This document shows positions 4,185-59,385 of a stretch of DNA of 64,000 nucleotides, one piece after another. The DNA is taken from NCBI GenBank assembly GCA_035544615.1, contig DATKEA010000017.1, positions 1,949-65,948 of the forward strand, given 5' to 3'. The translations under genes and the position numbers were made by a program. Source of the DNA: Acidimicrobiia bacterium (GTDB lineage: Bacteria; Actinomycetota; Acidimicrobiia; Spongiisociales; ZC4RG35). The notes beneath the pieces were generated by a model. The model searched no databases. It had not been told where the DNA came from and saw only the letters and a program-made list of their open reading frames with translations. Numbering within the stretch: the first letter of the stretch is position 1; each line of letters opens with the position of its first letter.

Positions 4185-5573
4185 TTGCCAGTTCATGTGG
4201 TGATCCTCGCTGCCGGCGAGGGCAAGAGAATGAGGTCCGATCTGCCCAAGGTGGCCCACATGGCGGCGGGGCGGTCGTTGATCGGTTGGGTTCTGGAGGC
4301 GGTCCGTCCTCTGGAGGCGGCCAGCACCGTTGTTGTCGTCGGTCATGGGGCCGACATGGTCGACCCGCATCTTCCCCAAGGGGTTCTCTCCGCAGTTCAG
4401 AGTGAACAGCTCGGAACCGGGCACGCCACCCAAGTGGGCCTCGACGCACTCGACGAAGTGGAACCCGATGACACGATCATGGTCCTCTACGGGGACATGC
4501 CGTTGCTCAGTGACGGTCTGCTGAGAAGCCTGGCTGATCGATCTCCCGACGTGGCGGCTCGTCTGGTGACCTCGACCTTCGATGACCCCACCGGCTATGG
4601 CCGTGTCATCAGGGACGGTCGTGGGTTGGTAGAGAAGATCGTGGAGGAGCGGGATTGTGACGATGCCCAGCGGGCGGTGCGGGAAATCAACGCCGGCTCG
4701 TACGCGTTTCGGGCCAAGGACCTGATCGATGCTCTCAGCCTCGTTTCCAACGACAATGCGCAGGGTGAGTATTACCTGACCGACGTGGTTGGGATCCTGG
4801 TGGGGAGAGGGGAGCGTTTGGAACCGGTGGAGACCGCACCCGAGGAGGTGGTCGGTATCAATTCTCAGAGCCAATTGTCGGAGGCAACCCGACTCTTGCA
4901 GAAGCGCATCAATCAGAGGCTGCTCGAATCGGGGGTGTGGATTCTCGATCCCGACCGAACCTACATCGACGACACAGTGTCGGTCGAGCCTGGGGCCAGG
5001 ATCTATCCCGGGGTCCATCTCGAGGGAGAAACCAGCGTCGGAGCGGGAGCGCACGTCGGGCCCGATGTCTTTGCCGTCGATTCCACCATTGGTGCCGGTT
5101 CGACCGTGTGGTACGCGGTGCTACGAGGGGCGATGATCGGGGAGGATTGTCATGTCGGCCCATACGCCTCTTTGCGTCAGGGCACGGTTCTGGAGAAGGG
5201 TGCCAAGGTCGGGACTTTTGTGGAGACCAAGAACACCACGCTCGGTGAGAAGGCCAAAGCACCTCATCTCTCGTATCTAGGCGACGCAACCATCGGCGCC
5301 CGATCCAACATCGGCGCCGGGTCGATCACCTGCAACTATGACGGCTATCAGAAACACCGAACCGAGATCGGTGAAGAGGTCTTCATCGGATCGGACACCA
5401 TGCTGGTTGCCCCGGTGAGGATCGGAGACCGCGCTGTCACCGGCGCCGGTTCGGTGATAACGGAGGACGTCGACGAAGGCGCCCTTGCCGTTGAGCGGAG
5501 CGAGCAGCGCCTGATCGACGGCTACTCTGAAAGGCGAGCCAAGAGACATGCCGCCAACGAAACAGAGGACTGA
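4185..5573 (+). CDS. glmU: Bifunctional UDP-N-acetylglucosamine pyrophosphorylase / glucosamine-1-phosphate N-acetyltransferase
   Basis: N-terminal nucleotidyltransferase motif (VVILAAGEGKRMRS) and a C-terminal left-handed beta-helix of hexapeptide repeats. Start set at the TTG at 4185, downstream of AAAGG. The ORF-track start at 4026 would overlap the tRNA. Confidence 0.85.
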   Translation: MPVHVVILAAGEGKRMRSDLPKVAHMAAGRSLIGWVLEAVRPLEAASTVVVVGHGADMVDPHLPQGVLSAVQSEQLGTGHATQVGLDALDEVEPDDTIMVLYGDMPLLSDGLLRSLADRSPDVAARLVTSTFDDPTGYGRVIRDGRGLVEKIVEERDCDDAQRAVREINAGSYAFRAKDLIDALSLVSNDNAQGEYYLTDVVGILVGRGERLEPVETAPEEVVGINSQSQLSEATRLLQKRINQRLLESGVWILDPDRTYIDDTVSVEPGARIYPGVHLEGETSVGAGAHVGPDVFAVDSTIGAGSTVWYAVLRGAMIGEDCHVGPYASLRQGTVLEKGAKVGTFVETKNTTLGEKAKAPHLSYLGDATIGARSNIGAGSITCNYDGYQKHRTEIGEEVFIGSDTMLVAPVRIGDRAVTGAGSVITEDVDEGALAVERSEQRLIDGYSERRAKRHAANETED

Positions 5574-6546
5574 GTTGGACATAGTTTCCCGCAACCGAAT
5601 GATGCTGTTCACCGGGGGCGCCAACATCCCCCTCGCTGAAGAGGTGGCGGAGGTCCTGGGCGTGGCGCTGGGTGACCTCGAGCGGTCGCGGTTCGCCAAT
5701 GGTGAGCTCTACATCCGCCCCGGTGAGAGTGTCCGTGGGGCGGACTGCTATGTGATGCAGTCTCACTGCGAGCCCATGAATGACAACATCATGGAGCAGC
5801 TGATAACGATCGATGCGCTGAAGAGGGCGTCCGCGCGTCGCATCACCGCGGTGATGCCCTACTTCGGATACTCGAGGCAGGACAAGAAGGTCAGGCCGCG
5901 GGAGCCGATCACCGCTCGGCTGGTCGGGGACCTATTCATGACGGCGGGCGCCGACCGGTTGGTCTCGGTGGACCTGCACACCGGCCAGCTGCAGGGATTC
6001 ATCCACAAGCCGTTCGACTCACTGACCGCGCTTCCCATCATCACCGATTATCTATCCCAGCGGCTCGATGGCCCGACGACCGTCCTCTCCCCGGACGCTG
6101 GCGGGGTGAAGCGAGCCGAGCGGTATGCCAGATTTCTCGATGCCTCCGTCGCCTTCGTGTACAAACGGCGCGATCCGACCGAGCACAACGTCTCTTCGGC
6201 GTTGGCGATGGCGGGATCGGTCAAGGACCGGCATGTCGTGATCGTCGATGACATCATCGATACGGCGGGGACGGTCACCAACGCGGCCGAGATGGTCCAT
6301 GCCCAGGGCGCGCTCAGCGTGCGCATCGCGGCCACCCACGGTGTGTTCTCCGATCCTGCGGTTGACCGGATCAAGAACGCACCGGTAGAGGAAGTGATCG
6401 TTACCAATACCCTGCCCGTGTCATCCGAGGCACTGGAGCTGGACAAAGTTCAAGTCCTGTCGATAGCGCCGATACTGGCCGAGACCCTGCAGGCGATCTT
6501 CATGGATTCTTCGGTCTCGGAGATCTTTCTCGGCGAGAACGCCTAG
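5548..6546 (+). CDS. prs: Ribose-phosphate pyrophosphokinase (PRPP synthetase)
   Basis: Typical Prs sequence, including the PRPP-binding loop (VVIVDDIIDTAGT). An alternative start at the ATG at 5599 would remove the overlap with glmU. Confidence 0.85.
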   Translation: MPPTKQRTELDIVSRNRMMLFTGGANIPLAEEVAEVLGVALGDLERSRFANGELYIRPGESVRGADCYVMQSHCEPMNDNIMEQLITIDALKRASARRITAVMPYFGYSRQDKKVRPREPITARLVGDLFMTAGADRLVSVDLHTGQLQGFIHKPFDSLTALPIITDYLSQRLDGPTTVLSPDAGGVKRAERYARFLDASVAFVYKRRDPTEHNVSSALAMAGSVKDRHVVIVDDIIDTAGTVTNAAEMVHAQGALSVRIAATHGVFSDPAVDRIKNAPVEEVIVTNTLPVSSEALELDKVQVLSIAPILAETLQAIFMDSSVSEIFLGENA

Positions 6547-50367: not shown

Positions 50368-51294
50368 TCATCGGGCCGTATTGACCCCGGCGACGGGCAC
50401 ATGGCGGCTGGAACGCTCGATCAGGACCACCCCACCGATGATGAGCACCGCACCGACGACGATGGCGACCGTCAGTCGCTCTCCCAGGAAGATCACGGCC
50501 AGCGTCACCGCGATCACCGGGACCACATAACCGGCGACGGCGAGCCGGGAGGCGAGGGTTACCTGGGCTGCGATCAGAAAAGCAGTGAACGGAACGGCGG
50601 TGGCCAGCACCCCAAGGGCGATGAGGAGGGCCCACTGCGATGTCTCGATCGAAGAGAGCGGGGTGGTGTCGAGGAAGGGCATCGCCAGCAGGACGAGGCC
50701 AGTGGCGCTGGCAAACTGGGGGATCACCAAACCGTCGCCACCGACATCGAGGGCGAAGCGGCGGCTCAGAGCACCTCCGACGCCGGCGAAGCAGACGGCG
50801 ATCAACGACAGGCCGACACCCCGCCACAAGTTGCCTACACCGTCCATGGAGCCACCTCCCACCCCCACCAGGACCCCGGTGCCGACGAGAGCGACGACCA
50901 GACCCGGTATCGACTGGGGGTTGAACCGCTCGTCAACCACCAAGAAATGCGCTCCTCCCACCGTGGCCGCGGGAATCAGAGCCACCAGGAGCCCGCCCAA
51001 GCTCACCGGAAGATCCTCCAGCCCCATGGTGAACAGGGTGTTGGGCAGCGCCAAGGCCACTCCGCCCAGAATGAAGCCCCTCACCCAGTGACGAGCATCG
51101 AGTCCCCGAAATCTCTTCCAGAACCGGGAGACGATCACCAGCACGACGAGAGCGAGGCCGAAACGCATCGGGACCACGGTGAACGTCGACACCCCACTGC
51201 CGAGGAGAGCCCGGGTGAGGACCGCCGCCGATCCCCACCCGAGGATGGCAGCCACGAGCGGGGTCCACGGATTCATGCCGGGGCGACGGTACAA
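50368..51294 (-). CDS. DMT-superfamily (EamA) transporter
   Basis: Ten TM helices arranged as two EamA repeats. Confidence 0.8.
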   Translation of the reverse strand: MYRRPGMNPWTPLVAAILGWGSAAVLTRALLGSGVSTFTVVPMRFGLALVVLVIVSRFWKRFRGLDARHWVRGFILGGVALALPNTLFTMGLEDLPVSLGGLLVALIPAATVGGAHFLVVDERFNPQSIPGLVVALVGTGVLVGVGGGSMDGVGNLWRGVGLSLIAVCFAGVGGALSRRFALDVGGDGLVIPQFASATGLVLLAMPFLDTTPLSSIETSQWALLIALGVLATAVPFTAFLIAAQVTLASRLAVAGYVVPVIAVTLAVIFLGERLTVAIVVGAVLIIGGVVLIERSSRHVPVAGVNTAR

Positions 51295-52458: not shown

Positions 52459-53196
52459 TCACTTCTTGCGGCGGAGACCGGAGAGAGCGCTCCGCCACAA
52501 GTAGGCGGTGAAGCTGGGGATCGCCTCTTGTTCCCCGTGGGCCTGGTCGCCGACCGAGGCGGTCGCTTCGCCTTTCTGCGGTGCTTCGATCGAGCGTTCC
52601 CCAGCGGCGCGCATCTCAGCCAATCGCTCTCTGAGGAAGACCGCTTCGGTCTCGGCACGTGCCGCCCTCTCACGGGCTTCGGCCAGCTGCTGACCTGCCT
52701 CGTGGAGGTTGCCCAGTTGGAGCAGCATCTTGTCCCAGGCCGCGATGGGAACGATCATCGTGCCGGGAGGGGGAGTCATCTCAGCGGCCGGTTTCGATGT
52801 GACCACGCCGCGTGCGTCGGCCGTCTCGGGTGGTGGCCCTGCCGGCACGCTCTCCCGTCCCACTTGCGCGGCCCGCGCCCGCACCCCATCCAGGGTGACC
52901 AGGCGGCGAGTCCCGGTCGGTGTCTCGTCGAGAATGCTCGGGATCCGGCCTTTACTGGCCCACTTTCGCAGCGTGGCAATGGGGATCCCGGTTGCCGCAC
53001 TCGCTTGGCGAAGAGTCAGCCAACCCTGGCCCGAAACATGAAGGTCCCCGGCTTGGTCTTCACCGCTGGCGTTCGAGGATGGCTGGCGGGCCGGTGGTGG
53101 GGTTGCCGGGGTGCGAAGCGCCTCGGTCTCCCATAGAAAGGCAGCATCCTGATCAGCCATGTCGTCATCATAAGAACTCTCTGCCGGCGAGATCAT
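52459..53196 (-). CDS. Helix-turn-helix DNA-binding protein (excisionase/MerR-like HTH plus coiled coil), divergent from the BMC locus
   Basis: HTH LTLRQASAATGIPIATLRKWASKGRIP, a Pro-rich linker and a C-terminal coiled coil. Confidence 0.5.
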   Translation of the reverse strand: MISPAESSYDDDMADQDAAFLWETEALRTPATPPPARQPSSNASGEDQAGDLHVSGQGWLTLRQASAATGIPIATLRKWASKGRIPSILDETPTGTRRLVTLDGVRARAAQVGRESVPAGPPPETADARGVVTSKPAAEMTPPPGTMIVPIAAWDKMLLQLGNLHEAGQQLAEARERAARAETEAVFLRERLAEMRAAGERSIEAPQKGEATASVGDQAHGEQEAIPSFTAYLWRSALSGLRRKK

Positions 53197-53251: not shown

Positions 53252-53881
53252 ATGACATCGCCCGCCGGCCCGACATCCCCGACCGAACAGGAAGTCCGCA
53301 CCCTGGTCGAGAGTGTGCTCGACGGAGTCCTGGGCTCCGATTCCGATCGGCCGGGGCCGGATCCCGCCCCGCCGACGCCGGCCGGGGCCGACGAGGGAAT
53401 GCCGAAGGCGAAGATCGCGGTGGGTTCAGACCACGGCGGCTACCCGCTCAAGGAGAGACTGGCATTCAAGCTCCGAGAGACCGGCTACGAGATCGTCGAT
53501 TGCGGGACGGACTCGCACGATGCAGTCGACTATCCGGACTTTGCCCACGCCGTAGCCCGAGAGGTGAGCTCCGGATCCTGTCGCTACGGGATCGTGGTGG
53601 ACGGAGCCGGAATCGGTTCGGCCATGGTGGCCAACAAGGTGCCGGGAGTGCGTGCCGCCTTGTGCTACGACCTGTCGTCGGCCCGCAACAGCCGAGAACA
53701 CAACCACGCCAACGTGTTGACCCTGGGAGCCGGGTTGATCGGGGAGGCTCTCGCCTGGCAGATTGTCGAAGAGTGGCTTTCCGTCGAGTGGGGTGGTGGT
53801 CGACACGCCCGCCGGGTTGCCAAGATCGACAACGTGCAACGGCAATACTCCGGGTCCGGCGTGAGTCAGGATCACCATTGA
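53252..53881 (+). CDS. RpiB/LacAB-family sugar-phosphate isomerase with an N-terminal encapsulation-peptide-like extension (BMC cargo)
   Basis: The core [15 protein letters not shown]...[17 protein letters not shown]...GGRHARRV aligns by eye to RpiB. A ~50 aa N-terminal extension carries an amphipathic helix ([16 protein letters not shown]) then a Pro/Gly/Asp-rich linker. An alternative core start lies at 53399. Confidence 0.8.
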
Positions 53882-54711
53882 ATCGCGATGCGTTGGTCGA
53901 GGCGGTGACTCGGGAGGTGATCGCTGCCCTCTCGACTCGCTACGACGTGTGTGACACCGGCGAGAAGGTGCGCGAGGTCGTGGCCAACGGGGTCGACCGG
54001 GTCGCCTTTCACGGCGAGGCGGCCGAGGTGCCCCTGGACATGGCTCGATACATCGATCACACCCTGCTCAAGCCCGAGGCGACGGCTGCCGAGATCGACC
54101 AGCTTTGCCGCGAGGCCGCGCAGTACCGCTTCGCCTCGGTTTGCATCAATCCCACATGGGTGAAGCGCGCGGCGGAGAATCTTCGGGGCACCTCGGTCCC
54201 GGTATGCACCGTGATCGGCTTTCCCCTCGGCGCCGGCACATCGGAGATCAAAGCGATGGAAGCGCGGAGGGCACTCCGTGACGGCGCGCGGGAAGTCGAC
54301 ATGGTGCTCAACATCGGGGCGTTGAAGTCGGGTGACCACAGCCTGGTGCTGAAGGACATCGAGAAGGTTGTCGATGCCGCCCACGAGGTAGGTGCATTGT
54401 GCAAGGTGATCCTCGAGACCGCCCTGCTCACCGACGAGGAGAAAGTGGTCGCTTCGGCCCTCGCCAAGAAGGCCAAAGCGGACTTCGTCAAGACTTCGAC
54501 CGGTTTCGGCCCGGGAGGCGCAACCGTCTATGACGTGGCCCTGATGCGGGAGACAGTCGGGCCCGAGATGGGAGTGAAAGCCTCGGGCGGGGTTCGCACC
54601 ACCGATGACGCGGAGGACATGATCGCCGCCGGTGCTACCAGAATCGGTGCTTCGGCTGGGATCGAGATCGTAGGCGGCAAGGATGGAGGACAAGGTGACG
54701 AGAGGCATTGA
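53878..54711 (+). CDS. deoC: Deoxyribose-phosphate aldolase (DERA) with an N-terminal encapsulation-peptide-like helix (BMC cargo)
   Basis: The core [14 protein letters not shown]...FASVCINP...[10 protein letters not shown]...DMVLNIG...DFVKTSTGF...[10 protein letters not shown] matches class-I DERA. A ~55 aa extension begins [19 protein letters not shown]. The TTG start overlaps the rpiB stop. Confidence 0.8.
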
Positions 54712-55324
54712 GCTGAGGTCGTTTGCGTTCCTGGACAGCCTCCAGCCGCAATACGCAGCATTTCTCGGGACGGTGGCCCAGGGGTTCCTCCCGCTGGCCG
54801 GCGACTCGTCCCTGTGGGTGGAAGTGGCTCCAGGTATCGAGATCAATCGTCTGACCGACGTGGCTCTGAAGGCGACATCGGTCAAGCCGGGCCTCCAGAT
54901 CATCGAGCGCTTCTACGGCGTGCTCGAGGTTCACTCACCGGATCAGGCCGAGACCAGAGCCGCCGGGGCGGCAATCCTCGACGGCATCGAGCTGACCGAG
55001 CACGACCGGATCAAGCCGCGGATCTTGTCGTCCCAGATCATTCGCAGACTCGACGACCATCACGCTCAGCTCATCAACCGGACCCGGCACGGTCAGATGA
55101 TCATCCCGGGCCAGACCCTGTATGTCCTCGAGTGCGAGCCGGCCGCATATGCGTCACTTGCTGCCAACGAGGCGGAGAAGGCAGCGGAGATCAACGTCCT
55201 CGAGGTGCGAAGCTTCGGCTCGATGGGTCGGGTCTACCTGGGCGGAGAAGAGCAGGACATCGATGTCGGGTGGCAGGCAGCGGTGGGCGCTCTGGAAGGG
55301 CTCACCGGCCGTGATGCCGGCTGA
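54695..55324 (+). CDS. BMC-T shell protein, CcmP/CsoS1D type (tandem permuted BMC domains)
   Basis: [28 protein letters not shown]...GIEINR...[11 protein letters not shown]...[28 protein letters not shown] matches the recalled CcmP sequence closely. The GTG at 54695 lies 5 nt after a GGAGG. The ORF-track ATG is at 54683. Confidence 0.8.
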
Positions 55325-55373
55325 GTGAGGATCTGCTTGAGTCAACGACGAAGACAACGAAAGGAGGAGCTTC

Positions 55374-55676
55374 ATGGCTGAAGCTCTTGGCATGATCGAA
55401 ACTCGAAGCTTCTCGGCGATGGTCGAGGCGGCAGATGCGATGGTGAAAGCCGCCAAGGTGGAGCTCGTGGGCATGGAGAAGACCGGTGGTGGATATGTGA
55501 CGGCCGTCGTGCGTGGCGATGTGGCCGCGGTCAAGGCTGCCGTCGACGCCGGTGTCCGGGGAGCGGAGAAGGTGGGTGAGGTCATCTCGACCCATGTCAT
55601 CGCACGCCCACACGTCAACATCGACCTGGTTCTGCCGCTCGGTCGCCAGGACCAGGCGCAAGACGATCTCGGTTAG
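55374..55676 (+). CDS. BMC-H shell protein (PduA/EutM type hexamer)
   Basis: [33 protein letters not shown]... is the canonical single BMC (Pfam00936) domain. Confidence 0.9.
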
Positions 55677-55709
55677 CCCAGCCATCCGTGGGAGACAGGA
55701 GATAGGACC

Positions 55710-56021
55710 GTGCATCTAGGCAGGGTCGCCGGGACGCTGGTCGCCAGTCGCAAGGAATCCCTCATGGAGGGGATGGTGTTCCTCGTCGTGCGTCAACTCG
55801 ACTCAGAGAACGCCGAGACGGGGAGCTATGTGGTGGCGGTCGATACGGTCGGTGCCGGTGTTGGCGAAGTCGTGCTCTACGCCTCGGGCAGCTCGGCGCG
55901 TCAAACGGAATCGACCCGCGACCGACCGGTGGATGCGGTGATCATGGCCATCGTCGACTCCTGGGATGTCGGTGGAGAGGTCCGGTACCACAAGGGTGAC
56001 GAAGAGGCATCGAGCAGGTAG
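55710..56021 (+). CDS. BMC-P vertex protein (EutN/CcmL/PduN family), paralogue 1
   Basis: [15 protein letters not shown]...[22 protein letters not shown]...AVIMAIVD is the EutN_CcmL fold. Confidence 0.85.
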
Positions 56022-56023
56022 CG

Positions 56024-57481
56024 ATGCTGAGCGACACAGATATCCAGGCCATAATCGAGCGGGTCAGGGGCCGGGTCGCCACAGCCGAGACAAACCGACG
56101 GGCGGCTCCGGCTTTGCGTGCCTCCGACGACCTCGCCGTGTCCGATGTCCAGCTCGGGGACGGCATCCATCCTTCCGTCGACGATGCGGTGGCGGCGGCT
56201 GGCACCGCCTTTCTCGAATACCGCGAGATGGGGCTCGAATCGCGCAAGTCGATCGTCGAGGCCATGCGAGCCGCGATGTTGCGGGAGGGGGAGCGACTCG
56301 GGTACATGGCGGCTGAGGAGACCGGCATCGGGAGGGGTGAGGACAAGGCGATCAAGAACCGCCTGGTAACCACCAAGACCCCGGGGCCCGAAGACCTCGA
56401 GCCACAGGTGGTGACCGGTGACGCCGGCATGATGGTCACCGAATACGCCCCTTACGGAGTGATCGGTTCGATCACTCCGACGACAAACCCCACATCCACG
56501 ATCATCAACAATTCGATCGCCATCGTGTCGGCGGGCAATGCGGTGGTCTTCAACGTCCATCCCAACGCCCGGTTGGTATCGGTCGAGAATGTCCAGCTTC
56601 TCAACAGGGCCATCGTCGGGGCGGGGGGCCCGCCGGATCTGGTAACTGCGATACCTCAGCCAACACTGGAGTCCGCGCGCCAATTGATGCAACATCCCGA
56701 CGTTCGCGTGCTCCTGGTCACCGGCGGCCCCGGTGTGGTCAAAGAGGCGCTCAAGACCAGCAAGAAAGCGATAACCGCCGGGCCCGGCAATCCGCCGGCG
56801 GTGGTCGACCAAACCGCCGACATCGACAACGCGGGCCGCGCCATCGTCAGGGGAGCGTCCTTCGACAACAACGTCATCTGCACCGACGAGAAAACCACGA
56901 TCGTGGTCGACACCGTCGCCGACCGTCTGGTGCAGGCGATGATCGCCGCCGGCGCCTACCGGCTCAAGGAGCACGAGCTGAAGCGTCTGGAGCGGGTGAT
57001 ATTCAAGGAGATGGGACCCCCCGGTAAACCGGGAATGATCAACACCGACTGGATCGGCAAGGACGCGGCGAGGATCCTCTCCGAGATCGGGGTCACAGTG
57101 GGGGACGAGGTGAGGCTGGTCGTGGCCGAGGTCCGTCGCGAGCACAACCTGGTCTGGACCGAGCAGATGATGCCGGTGATGCCGGTGGTCCGGGTGAGCA
57201 ATGTCGAGGATGCCATCGACCTCGCGGTTCGCTCCGAGCACGGGTTCCGACACACCGCTTCGATCCACAGCACCAATGTGGAGACGATCACACGCATGGC
57301 CCGCGCGATGAACTGCAGCATTTTCGTGGCCAATGGGTCCAACTTCAACGGCCTCGGAGAAGGAGGCGAAGGCTTCACCTCGTTCTCGATCGCCAGCCCT
57401 ACCGGGGAGGGAATGACCCGGCCGCGTACTTTCTCCAGGGTGCGCCGGGTGACGGTGGTCGGAGCTCTGCGAATTGTCTGA
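56024..57481 (+). CDS. CoA-acylating aldehyde dehydrogenase (PduP/EutE-like) with an N-terminal encapsulation peptide (BMC cargo)
   Basis: N-terminal MLSDTDIQAIIERVRGRV amphipathic helix, a ~30 aa linker, then the AldDH core (GIHPSVDDAVAAAGTAF ... ITPTTNPTST ... catalytic Cys region NNVICTDEKT). Confidence 0.85.
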   Translation: MLSDTDIQAIIERVRGRVATAETNRRAAPALRASDDLAVSDVQLGDGIHPSVDDAVAAAGTAFLEYREMGLESRKSIVEAMRAAMLREGERLGYMAAEETGIGRGEDKAIKNRLVTTKTPGPEDLEPQVVTGDAGMMVTEYAPYGVIGSITPTTNPTSTIINNSIAIVSAGNAVVFNVHPNARLVSVENVQLLNRAIVGAGGPPDLVTAIPQPTLESARQLMQHPDVRVLLVTGGPGVVKEALKTSKKAITAGPGNPPAVVDQTADIDNAGRAIVRGASFDNNVICTDEKTTIVVDTVADRLVQAMIAAGAYRLKEHELKRLERVIFKEMGPPGKPGMINTDWIGKDAARILSEIGVTVGDEVRLVVAEVRREHNLVWTEQMMPVMPVVRVSNVEDAIDLAVRSEHGFRHTASIHSTNVETITRMARAMNCSIFVANGSNFNGLGEGGEGFTSFSIASPTGEGMTRPRTFSRVRRVTVVGALRIV

Positions 57482-58076
57482 CGGAGCGCAGGCGGTCGCC
57501 CTATTCGAGTTTGGCTCGATCAGCGCGGGGATCGTCGCCGGTGATGCAATGGTCAAGGCCTCTCCGCTGGGAGCCATCTATGCCGGAACCGTGCACCCCG
57601 GCAAGTATCTCGTGTTGGTCACCGGAGACACGGCCAGTGTCGCCATGGCTGTCGATGTCGGGAACGATGTGGGGCGGGAGGCGGTAAGCGACGTTGTGTT
57701 CCTCGCCGATATCCACCCGTCCGTTCCCCAGGCGATTCGGGGCAATAGCGCCCGGGCGCCGGTGGGTGACGAGGCTCTCGGCGTCGTGGAAACCTCTTCG
57801 GTGGCCGCGGCCGTGGACGCCGCCGACGCCGGGGTCAAGGCTGCCGACGCCCGGCTCGCCGCCATCAGACTGGGCGACGGTTTGGGGGGAAAGGGCTATG
57901 TCCTGTTCACCGGGATGGTGGCGGAGGTCGAGGCGTCGTTGGAGGCGGCGGTGGCCCGCGCCGAAGGTCACGGGACGCTGGTGCGCTCCGATCTGATTGC
58001 GCAGCTTCACGAGGAGATGGCTGACAACCTGCGCGCTGACCTCAATTTCATGAACCGGGTCTCCGGGAGTCGATGA
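57474..58076 (+). CDS. BMC-T shell protein, PduT-like (tandem canonical BMC domains)
   Basis: Two BMC repeats (ALFEFGSISAGIVAGDAMVKAS...; ALGVVETSSVAAAVDAADAGVKAADARL...). The PduT Fe-S Cys position is His here (HPGKY). Confidence 0.75.
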   Translation: MSDGAQAVALFEFGSISAGIVAGDAMVKASPLGAIYAGTVHPGKYLVLVTGDTASVAMAVDVGNDVGREAVSDVVFLADIHPSVPQAIRGNSARAPVGDEALGVVETSSVAAAVDAADAGVKAADARLAAIRLGDGLGGKGYVLFTGMVAEVEASLEAAVARAEGHGTLVRSDLIAQLHEEMADNLRADLNFMNRVSGSR

Positions 58077-58077
58077 G

Positions 58078-58356
58078 ATGCAACTGGGCCGTGTCCTAGG
58101 AAGCGTCGTCGCCACCAAGAAGTCCCCGGGTCTGGAGGGAGTCCGGCTTCTCATCGTCCAGCCTCTCGACAAGACCCAGCAGCCAAAGGGCGAGAGCGTG
58201 GTCGCTGCCGACGCAGTGTCCATGGCCGGCCCCGGCGAACTTGTGTACTTCGTTGCCTCGCGGGAGGCGGCCGAGGCTCTGCCCGAGCGGTTCGTGCCGG
58301 TCGACCACGCCGTGGTGGGCATCGTCGATCAGATTCACCTGGAATCCGGCCGATGA
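58078..58356 (+). CDS. BMC-P vertex protein, paralogue 2
   Basis: MQLGRVLGSVVATKK...AADAVSMAGPGELVYFVASREA...VVGIVD. Confidence 0.85.
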   Translation: MQLGRVLGSVVATKKSPGLEGVRLLIVQPLDKTQQPKGESVVAADAVSMAGPGELVYFVASREAAEALPERFVPVDHAVVGIVDQIHLESGR

Positions 58357-58640
58357 AGGTGGGTCGGGTTGCGGGGACTGTCGTGTCCACGATCAAGGTT
58401 CCGGTTCTCGACGACCACCGGCTCCTTCTCTGCGATATCGAGGACCTGAAGGGAAGTTCGGTGGGCTACACCATCGCCGTCGACGTGGTCGATGCCGGCG
58501 TGGGCGACAAGGTGCTCATCCTCGACGAGGGCAGCTCGGCCCGTCAGATCCTCGGCCTCGAATGGGGTGCGATCCGGGCAGTGGTGGTGGGCATCGTCGA
58601 TCAGTTGGTCGTGGAGGGCGCGGTGCGGGGGCTCGACTAG
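58353..58640 (+). CDS. BMC-P vertex protein, paralogue 3
   Basis: MKVGRVAGTVVSTIK...AVDVVDAGVGDKVLILDEGSSAR...VVVGIVD. Overlaps the preceding BMC-P (ATGA). Confidence 0.85.
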   Translation: MKVGRVAGTVVSTIKVPVLDDHRLLLCDIEDLKGSSVGYTIAVDVVDAGVGDKVLILDEGSSARQILGLEWGAIRAVVVGIVDQLVVEGAVRGLD

Positions 58641-58842
58641 CGGAAATGTTTCGCCAAGTGCGGAGCTTCGGTTTGAAACCCGGAATAGCGGGTAAGAGCG
58701 CCGACCCGATCAACACACCTTGAATTGACACCGATCAGAATTGCCGGGGCGGATCAGGGAGAAGCTCCTCCCTCCATCAGTGAGCTACGAGCCCTCACGC
58801 CGCCCGATCCGCCCCGGCGATCAACGTCGGATCGGGCCGGCC

Positions 58843-59385
58843 ATGCAAGACCATGACTTCCGTGCCCATCTCCGTGCCGCCCGTGCCGGGGATGAGCCTG
58901 CCTGGTGGGCCCTTTATCACTGGCTCGCTCCTCAGGTTCTCGGGTTTCTCCGTGGCAGCCGGATTCCCGACCCCGAAGACGTCCTCGGTGAGGTCTTCCT
59001 CGAGGTGGCTCGCCGAATCGATCGATTTCGGGGCGACGCGCGAGGGTTCAGGGCTTGGGTGTTCACCATTACACGGGCGCGTCGCGTCGACGAGATTCGG
59101 CGGCGCGTCCGGCGTCGGGAAGACCCGCTCGACACCGGGTCTCACGATCTGTTGCCCGCTCCCCTCGATGTCGAGGCCGAGGCGCTCGCCATGGTCGGGC
59201 TGGAAGAGTTGATCGGCCTTCTCGACCAACTCACCGACGATCAGAGCGAAGTGCTGGTATTGCGGGCTATCGGTGGTTGGACAGCTCGTGAGGTGGGAGA
59301 GATCACCGGTCGTAGCACCGGATCCGTGGAGCAACTGCAACACCGGGCGACCCGGGCGCTGAGAGAGCTTCTCGACGAGGCGTAA
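58843..59385 (+). CDS. ECF-subfamily RNA polymerase sigma-70 factor
   Basis: Region 2 (FRAHLRAARAGDEPAWWALYHWLAPQVLGFL ... DVLGEVFLEVARRIDRF) and region 4 HTH (EVLVLRAIGGWTAREVGEITGRSTGSVEQLQHRATRALR). The ORF-track start at 58741 is probably too long. Confidence 0.75.
   Translation: MQDHDFRAHLRAARAGDEPAWWALYHWLAPQVLGFLRGSRIPDPEDVLGEVFLEVARRIDRFRGDARGFRAWVFTITRARRVDEIRRRVRRREDPLDTGSHDLLPAPLDVEAEALAMVGLEELIGLLDQLTDDQSEVLVLRAIGGWTAREVGEITGRSTGSVEQLQHRATRALRELLDEA

Follow-up and report, generated by a model that had tools for sequence, protein, structure and literature searches.

The best described relatives of the locus analysed here are the sugar-phosphate-utilising (SPU) BMC loci and among them the subtype SPU3, which was defined in Sutter 2021 (Nat Commun) and is also treated in Dwyer 2024 (Commun Biol). 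According to Supplementary Data 2 of Sutter 2021, SPU3 loci encode a single standard BMC-H, a BMC-P triplet in which two genes lie side by side, a BMC-Tdp of the CcmP-like clade and a BMC-Ts that has neither a PduS partner nor a pore Cys. The enzymes listed there for SPU3 are an aldehyde dehydrogenase (AldDh) together with pfam01791 and pfam02502 proteins, and Actinobacteria are among the hosts. Three further systems are relevant for a comparison, namely SPU6 of Chloroflexi, which has been studied experimentally (Dwyer 2024), the shell of Haliangium ochraceum (HO; 5V74 and related structures) and, for single shell proteins, CcmP and CsoS1D of the beta- and alpha-carboxysome as well as PduT.

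In a window of 64 kb, which is the whole stretch of DNA analysed and belongs to a soil Acidimicrobiia genome, we found a tightly packed operon of nine genes on the plus strand (53252-58640) with the order RPI-DERA-Tdp-H-P1-AldDh-Ts-P2-P3 and with overlapping stop and start codons between neighbouring genes. All nine genes show dN/dS values between 0.08 and 0.36. Six of them encode shell proteins, one BMC-H, a CcmP-type BMC-Tdp, a PduT-like BMC-Ts and three BMC-P, and all six ORFs are intact. Pfam and PDB alignments confirmed the positions and types that a first-pass annotation had given to these six genes. As no further BMC or EutN ORF was detected in the 64 kb window using phmmer with the local shell proteins as queries, its count of a single hexamer gene is valid for the window. 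We are highly confident from the gene content that the locus encodes a canonical SPU3-type sugar-phosphate-utilising BMC (metabolosome), whereby the subtype call is a match to the published text description (Sutter 2021) and not to the catalogue HMMs.

The same gene order with all genes intact is present in 31 loci including the window, the other 30 coming from Acidimicrobiia and Zixibacteria-like genomes, and additional loci that are partial or frameshifted show it as well. The DERA protein of the window is 99% identical to that of a soil Acidimicrobiia MAG, and in the relatives outside the phylum that share the order RPI and DERA are fused, as is typical of SPU3.

The first gene of the operon encodes an RPI of the RpiB family (53252..53881, plus strand; Pfam LacAB_rpiB 6.7e-53, residues 55-192), whose N-terminus consists of an amphipathic helix and a Pro-rich linker, both conserved among relatives; the helix is likely to be an encapsulation peptide (EP). 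Alignment to PDB structures places Asp117 at the position of the catalytic Cys of RpiB ('vvDgaG' vs 'viCgtG'), and this exchange is found in 43 of 43 loci, in agreement with the published description of the SPU RPI as inactive. Directly adjacent follows the SPU signature enzyme deoxyribose-5-phosphate aldolase (DERA; 53878..54711, plus strand; Pfam DeoC), which starts with a TTG that overlaps the RPI stop codon (TTGA). It carries an N-terminal extension of 52 residues that is conserved in relatives, and PDB DERAs align to residues 53-270 only (E 1e-82). Its DMV, KVI and VKTSTGF motifs, which we take to hold the equivalents of D102, K167 and K201 of the E. coli enzyme, are conserved in the alignment to PDB DERAs and relatives.

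The third enzyme is a PduP-like CoA-acylating aldehyde dehydrogenase (AldDh; 56024..57481, plus strand; Pfam Aldedh), which aligns with 5JFL (E 7e-125) from residue 23 through the C-terminal end of 5JFL. Residues 1-22, which lie beyond this homology, are a conserved amphipathic segment, DIQAIIERVRGRV, whose helix is likely to be an encapsulation peptide as well. The Cys in the conserved NNVICTDEK motif aligns with a conserved Cys of 5JFL and is taken to be the catalytic one. The N-terminal extension of DERA and the N-terminal helices of RPI and AldDh agree with Dwyer 2024.

Compared to SPU3, the locus thus described shares the AldDh with N-terminal EP, the N-extended pfam01791 DERA, the pfam02502 RPI, the absence of PTAC, the whole shell set and an Actinobacteria host, and nothing substantive differs. 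RPI and DERA are fused in a subset of SPU3 loci, whereas here they are separate genes with overlapping stop and start codons, and the SPU3 descriptions that we found do not specify such a detail as the conserved His or Gln at the pore of the BMC-Ts. SPU6 has in common with the locus the DERA signature enzyme and an RPI without catalytic Cys, which is proposed as packaging partner. However, in SPU6 the EP of the AldDh is C-terminal in contrast to the N-terminal one found here, the Tdp belongs to the 'blue' clade and not to the CcmP-like clade, and the catalogue description of SPU6 lists no BMC-Ts, of which the locus analysed here has one.

The HO shell resembles the locus in having one main BMC-H, a Cys-less BMC-Ts and a BMC-P triplet, but the HO main locus contains neither DERA nor RPI. 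HO has two Tdp paralogues, and its T1 presumably carries a Ser at the pore position of Cys38 in PduT. In type I HO loci two of the BMC-P are encoded in a satellite locus along with an aldolase (Sutter 2021). We found no satellite genes within the window.

The BMC-Ts (57474..58076, plus strand; two Pfam BMC domains, 7.2e-29) shares with PduT the tandem, non-permuted BMC domains and the xPGK[YF] pore loop, and it matches PduT 3VCD (6e-31) and the PduT-type protein 3NWG (2e-30). In PduT the pore Cys38 is the ligand of a [4Fe-4S] cluster and PduS is the usual partner, whereas in our protein this position is taken by His41 (HPGKY). The first-pass annotation had already pointed to a His in place of the cluster-ligating Cys, and the alignments reproduce it, with vhPGKY facing vcPGKY in 3NWG and His41 facing a Ser in the 3VCD sequence, which is presumably that of a C38S mutant. 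Neither the window of 64 kb nor the fetched loci with a His- or Gln-pore Ts, which were covered up to 10 kb on either side of DERA, gave a hit in single-sequence phmmer searches for PduS, PTAC, Fe-ADH and TIM homologues. By comparison, an SPU4-like locus of Faecousia encodes a Ts with a Cys pore next to PduS. The BMC-Ts is therefore PduT-like in fold and family and is not a PduT-type Fe-S protein.

It could be argued that the three His form a metal site or an electron or proton conduit replacing the function of the PduT [4Fe-4S] cluster, as His is a good metal ligand, the position ligates the cluster in PduT and the residue is conserved in 39 of 42 related syntenic loci and in 118 of 120 close BMC-Ts homologues. 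We consider this unlikely. Among the 20 nearest cluster representatives at 50% identity the position is occupied by His in 10 and by Gln in 9, an exchange that is typical of a hydrogen-bonding residue and not of a metal ligand, and this alternation in the nearest relatives favours a polar pore lining over a metal ligand. Over all 150 cluster representatives Cys (41), Ser (35), His (33), Gln (17) and Thr (8) are found. A redox partner of the PduS type is missing from the window and the related loci, the dN/dS of 0.36 is the most relaxed of the operon, and in the Sutter 2021 catalogue Ts proteins without the Cys are regarded as structural. Searching the literature for His sites in the pores of BMC-T, whether engineered or natural, yielded nothing relevant. 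The earlier statement that the trimer probably has no metal centre is consistent with the catalogue SPU3 type (no pore Cys, no PduS) and with the His/Gln alternation, and we infer the same, although a ring of three His could bind metal. With the polar pore lining as the preferred reading, the high conservation of the His in this lineage (39/42) leaves room for a specific role beyond a purely structural one.

The first-pass annotation had regarded the shell inventory as unusual, which does not hold since precisely these shell genes make up the SPU3 definition in Sutter 2021, so that the set is an ordinary one and is already known. That it represents a lineage-specific innovation or a new BMC type or variant is accordingly very unlikely, even if the Acidimicrobiia MAGs with similar loci look recently deposited and may be missing from the 2021 catalogue, and even if the strict conservation of the pore His is unmentioned in the SPU literature that we found. 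Each element of the inventory stands in the SPU3 description, the Actinobacteria included, all SPU loci are said to have the triplet, and the Zixibacteria-like loci share both the gene order and the SPU3-typical RPI-DERA fusion. A single pentamer gene had likewise been assumed to be the norm, but in Sutter 2021 BMC-P occur most often either singly or as three paralogues, and every SPU locus carries at least a BMC-P triplet.

All three BMC-P genes, located on the plus strand, match Pfam EutN_CcmL over their full length: BMC-P1 at 55710-56021 (1.3e-28), BMC-P2 at 58078-58356 (9.4e-27) and BMC-P3 at 58353-58640 (1.1e-18). They had been described as diverged, which fits their mutual identity of 36-38%. 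P1 has a CcmL-like SGSSARQ motif, is closest to the HO pentamer in 5V74 (E 2.2e-32, 63% identity) and forms a clade with it in our tree. P2 and P3 each have their own conserved signature, mAGpGE..., SREAAE and FVPvDHA in P2 and LilDEG.sARQ in P3, and overlap in an ATGA (58353-58356), which suggests translational coupling. In the phylogenetic tree the three BMC-P fall into three clean clades that span phyla. A paraphyly of P3 seen in a midpoint-rooted NJ tree was an artefact and disappeared after the Faecousia loci had been dropped and the tree re-rooted.

As an icosahedral shell needs only 12 pentamers, and as a single P1-like BMC-P reportedly suffices for the HO model shell in the 5V74 work, two of the three genes might be redundant or decaying duplicates beside one functional pentamer, which the first-pass annotation had itself named as a point to be checked. 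We consider this very unlikely. The dN/dS values of 0.16 (P1), 0.18 (P2) and 0.28 (P3) are comparable to those of the enzyme genes, all three BMC-P are intact in 36 loci, and neither the signatures specific to each paralogue, nor the separate clades across phyla, nor the overlap of P2 and P3 with its suggested coupled translation would be expected from decay. Judged by their sequences, the three BMC-P are thus ancient paralogues under purifying selection and not pseudogenes.

The catalogue 'grey' and 'orange' BMC-P partners, with which we equate P2 and P3, always co-occur; the colour clades of P1-P3 are unconfirmed, the clades given here being those of our own tree and not of the catalogue HMMs. 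P2 and P3 may co-assemble, for example as a heteropentamer, or have a separate function such as nucleating the cargo, closing the shell or controlling its size, with P1 capping the vertices. That P2 and P3 serve as something other than simple vertex caps or, alternatively, that the His ring of BMC-Ts is a metal-binding or a phosphate- or pH-sensing selectivity filter is a speculative proposal, for which we see a modest chance.

The sole hexamer gene encodes a BMC-H (55374..55676, plus strand; single Pfam BMC domain, 6.5e-30) with the standard KAAK and (A)RPH edge motifs, a GGGY pore loop and a dN/dS of 0.08. The BMC-Tdp (54683..55324, plus strand), a CcmP-type double-stacking trimer, likely starts at the GTG at 54695, which is preceded by a GGAGGA motif. 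In Pfam it shows only one BMC stretch below threshold (22 bits vs a cut-off of 24.5). In contrast, residues 7-211 align with CcmP 4HT5, the best PDB match (E 1.2e-84), and the protein also aligns with CsoS1D (5.6e-54), with HO BMC-T2/T3 (E 1e-70) and with the MSM0271/0275 proteins. From the full-length alignment with CcmP it follows that both permuted BMC domains are present, which bears out the CcmP/CsoS1D-type assignment of the first-pass annotation against the possibility of a single BMC domain; the weak Pfam score is most likely due to the permuted order of the domains and not to a failed assignment. The Glu-Arg gate shared with CcmP and CsoS1D, which in CcmP we take to be E69/R70 (numbered by our own count on the CcmP sequence), is intact (IIER), and a check of the pore residues revealed the 'ER' pair in 46 of 46 loci, with a dN/dS of 0.10 for the gene. 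CcmP and CsoS1D work in a carbon-fixing context with RuBP and 3-PGA, whereas the context here is catabolic, with deoxyribose phosphate, cofactors and acetyl-CoA as the presumed species. The earlier idea that this trimer gates the passage of a sugar phosphate is plausible, but it is not original as the hypothesis already stands in the published SPU and catalogue papers. A carboxysome-related, anabolic compartment, to which the CcmP-like gene might point, can practically be dismissed despite the approximately 65% identity to cyanobacterial CcmP (estimated from the alignment, E 1e-84), as the enzymes of the operon are DERA, RPI and an acylating AldDh, genes for RuBisCO and carbonic anhydrase are absent from it, and CcmP-like Tdp are documented in HO, MIC3, SPU2 and SPU3 loci (Sutter 2021).

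From the gene content together with the published SPU model, a mechanism and roles for the shell proteins can be proposed. [quoted passage not shown] The RPI without catalytic Cys would probably serve as a packaging partner for DERA and not as an isomerase. BMC-H would build the facets, and the CcmP-type stacked trimer would provide a large gated pore for bulky phosphorylated species, acetyl-CoA, CoA and NAD(H). No gene for PTAC, PduS or an alcohol dehydrogenase that could recycle the cofactors within the shell was found in the window. The PduT-like trimer with its His/Gln pore and no Fe-S cluster may be a structural or pore tile, and the three BMC-P would correspond to the 'BMC-P triplet' of the catalogue with P1 resembling the HO-shell pentamer, which caps the vertices.

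Divergently transcribed from the operon is an ORF of 245 aa (52459..53196, minus strand) with a weak MerR/HTH_17-like helix-turn-helix (Pfam MerR 6.7e-5 and HTH_17 3.4e-4, both below the cut-off). A homologue is found in 29 fetched loci besides the window, counted within 10 kb on either side of DERA in any position or orientation. We regard the protein as a candidate regulator, whose membership in the system we infer. A scan for promoters found none, and we do not claim a terminator, since shuffled sequences fold just as well as the hairpin that follows P3 (z = 0.11).

In summary the known SPU picture is not extended by this locus, whose main value lies in the correct annotation, namely that an SPU3 metabolosome, presumably for the salvage of deoxyribose phosphate from the debris of DNA, is encoded in a soil lineage of Acidimicrobiia as well as in about 40 related MAG loci. 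The proposals for P2 and P3 and for the His ring are not specific to the window but bear on all loci with a BMC-P triplet. With its nine genes the compact locus could serve as a minimal system to find out why BMC-P triplets exist and which role Cys-less PduT-like trimers play.

The shell inventory of the operon (53252–58640, forward strand) is the defining inventory of an already described BMC subtype, the sugar-phosphate-utilising type SPU3. The operon holds nine closely spaced genes encoding an RpiB-family protein (RPI, 53252–53881), a deoxyribose-phosphate aldolase (DERA, 53878–54711, TTG start), a tandem-domain BMC protein of 213 aa (Tdp, from 54683 or 54695 to 55324), a single-domain BMC-H (55374–55676), a BMC-P pentamer (P1, 55710–56021), an aldehyde dehydrogenase (AldDh, 56024–57481), a second tandem-domain BMC protein of 200 aa (Ts, 57474–58076) and two further BMC-P (P2, 58078–58356; P3, 58353–58640). 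All six shell genes proved real and lie where the first-pass annotation had placed them, as checked on the ORFs of the 64 kb window, in which the local shell proteins as queries revealed no extra BMC or EutN ORF. Stops and starts overlap in RPI/DERA (TTGA), P2/P3 (ATGA) and AldDh/Ts (8 nt), and Shine-Dalgarno-like motifs are found upstream of RPI, Tdp (GTG 54695), BMC-H and P1. For DERA the TTG at 53878, overlapping the RPI stop, is the only possible start, and for Tdp the GTG at 54695 with a GGAGGA motif before it is more likely than the ATG at 54683; both starts are probably truncated or misplaced by automatic callers.

P1, P2 and P3 each match EutN_CcmL of Pfam over their full length. In the window they share 36–38% identity with one another, in line with the three diverged paralogues initially proposed, and each is typically 56–70% identical to its positional counterpart in other loci. 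In a neighbour-joining tree they separate into three clean clades with conserved signatures of their own (P1, SGSSARQT...DAViMAIVD; P2, mAGpGE...SREAAE...FVPvDHA; P3, LilDEG.sARQ), P1 grouping with the shell pentamer of Haliangium ochraceum (PDB 5V74, 63% identity). Pseudogenes are ruled out, since dN/dS, computed pairwise by the Nei-Gojobori method for the Acidimicrobiia loci, is low (0.16, 0.18 and 0.28 for P1, P2 and P3), inside the range of the remaining operon genes (0.08–0.36), and all three pentamers are intact in 36 loci. Judged from sequence, they are old, distinct and maintained.

Pfam gives for Tdp a single BMC match under the threshold. Despite this, its alignment with CcmP (4HT5, E 1.2e-84) spans the whole protein, as do those with BMC-T2/T3 from H. 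ochraceum, CsoS1D and the mycobacterial MSM0271/0275, which upholds the CcmP-type assignment and identifies Tdp, at the sequence level, as a true member of the CcmP branch of double-stacking proteins with permuted tandem domains. The Glu-Arg gate pair, which we take to be E69/R70 in CcmP (numbering counted on the printed CcmP sequence), reads IIER in Tdp and is retained in 46/46 related loci. The BMC-H shows the standard edge motifs KAAK and (A)RPH.

Ts possesses two BMC domains of the standard kind, and its matches to PduT-type proteins have E-values of 6e-31 to 5e-28. In the alignments the His of its vHPGKY motif falls opposite the Cys in vCPGKY of 3NWG and opposite a Ser in the PduT sequence of 3VCD, a C38S mutant, and thus His41 is located at the cluster-ligating position, as had been noted before. 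This His is conserved in 39 of 42 related loci and in 118 of 120 close homologues. Among the 150 best representatives of 50%-identity clusters the position is occupied by Cys (41), Ser (35), His (33), Gln (17) or Thr (8), and among the 20 nearest by His (10) or Gln (9). The sole syntenic locus with a pore Gln (L040, around 4499–5743) carries a His three residues further on (QPGHY), which fits the His/Gln interchange across the wider family. Because of this alternation, the absence of PduS from the window and the fetched loci with a His- or Gln-pore Ts, and a dN/dS of 0.36, the highest in the operon, we favour a polar pore lining over an obligate metal ligand, which supports the earlier suggestion that the trimer probably has no metal centre.

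A scan with the DERA protein, sampling one genome per species, led to 71 loci; contig DASWKK010000066.1 from a soil Acidimicrobiia MAG is 99% identical to the window (DERA protein). The order RPI-DERA-Tdp-H-P1-AldDh-Ts-P2-P3 with all genes intact is found in 31 loci including the window, and also in additional partial or frameshifted ones; the hosts are mostly Acidimicrobiia, with some labelled Zixibacteria, Krumholzibacteria, Chloroflexia and Ignavibacteria. In several MFD-series MAGs (L010, L069, L070) AldDh, DERA, Ts or P1 is split over reading frames, and as the adjoining genes are intact these splits look like assembly indels and not real pseudogenes. In loci from beyond the phylum, one reading frame encodes RPI and DERA as a fusion in which RPI is N-terminal (L043, L044, L046, L047, L048, L053 and L071, e.g. 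L044:1507–2961; labelled Zixibacteria, Krumholzibacteria and Ignavibacteria), and the downstream order of shell genes and AldDh is unchanged where the contigs reach far enough. This fusion is the known SPU3 chimera. The scan also reached two SPU4-like loci from Faecousia (Firmicutes; L057:1–11600 and L058) with DeoR, Fe-ADH, PTAC, AldDh, PduS, a Cys-pore Ts, three BMC-H, pentamers, two DeoC paralogues and TIM. In one such locus PduS adjoins the Cys-pore Ts, whereas homologues of PduS, PTAC, Fe-ADH and TIM were found neither in the window, with its His-pore Ts, nor in the fetched loci with a His- or Gln-pore Ts.

The catalytic domain of DERA begins only at residue 53, and AldDh carries an N-terminal helix together with the conserved aligned Cys. 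In RPI, residues 115–122 read VVDGAGIG, with Asp117 and Ala119 replacing the Cys and Thr of the RpiB motif CGTG, whose Cys is the catalytic residue; every related locus (43/43) carries this Asp. Such a protein fits the SPU RPI described as lacking the catalytic Cys, essentially inactive and DERA-binding (Dwyer et al. 2024). SPU3 hosts include Acidobacteria, Actinobacteria and Chloroflexi, and the enzymes are AldDh, pfam01791 and pfam02502, the latter two being fused in some loci, with encapsulation peptides at the N-termini of AldDh and pfam01791; the catalogued shell set comprises a single BMC-H, a BMC-P triplet, a CcmP-like Tdp and a Ts with neither a PduS partner nor a pore Cys (Sutter et al. 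2021). Dwyer et al. (2024) repeated the statement that all SPU loci carry at least a BMC-P triplet and reported that SPU types without PTAC typically possess Tdp and that the DERA N-terminal extension is overlooked by automatic annotation. As the DERA extension, the RPI without the catalytic Cys, the AldDh helix, the missing PTAC and the further published points are all matched, the gene calls of the first-pass annotation were right but its description of the inventory as unusual was not. Sugar-phosphate passage through the CcmP-like trimer is likewise a hypothesis already published, and only the pore His of Ts is a detail not spelled out in the SPU texts compared.

Several neighbouring genes were also observed. 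A divergently transcribed 245-aa ORF (52459–53196, reverse strand) with a weak MerR/HTH_17-like helix-turn-helix under the Pfam cut-offs and a coiled-coil-looking C-terminus is a candidate regulator of the operon; in the stored DNA around the operon a homologue is present in 29 fetched loci besides the window, distant Acidimicrobiia included. An EamA-family transporter (50368–51294, reverse strand) that faintly matches triose-phosphate transporters lies some 2 kb upstream and also accompanies the operon in 13 fetched loci besides the window; it might speculatively be tied to substrate uptake. Immediately downstream an ECF-type sigma factor (58741–59385, forward strand) is followed, up to 61212 on the same strand, by two ORFs without Pfam matches but with C-terminal Asp/Arg-rich low-complexity tails (DRDRDRDR...), an arrangement kept in the closest relatives only.

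[quoted passage not shown] Since no internal recycling enzyme is encoded, bulky species and cofactors are probably handled by the gated CcmP-like pore, and RPI would probably serve as the packaging partner of DERA.
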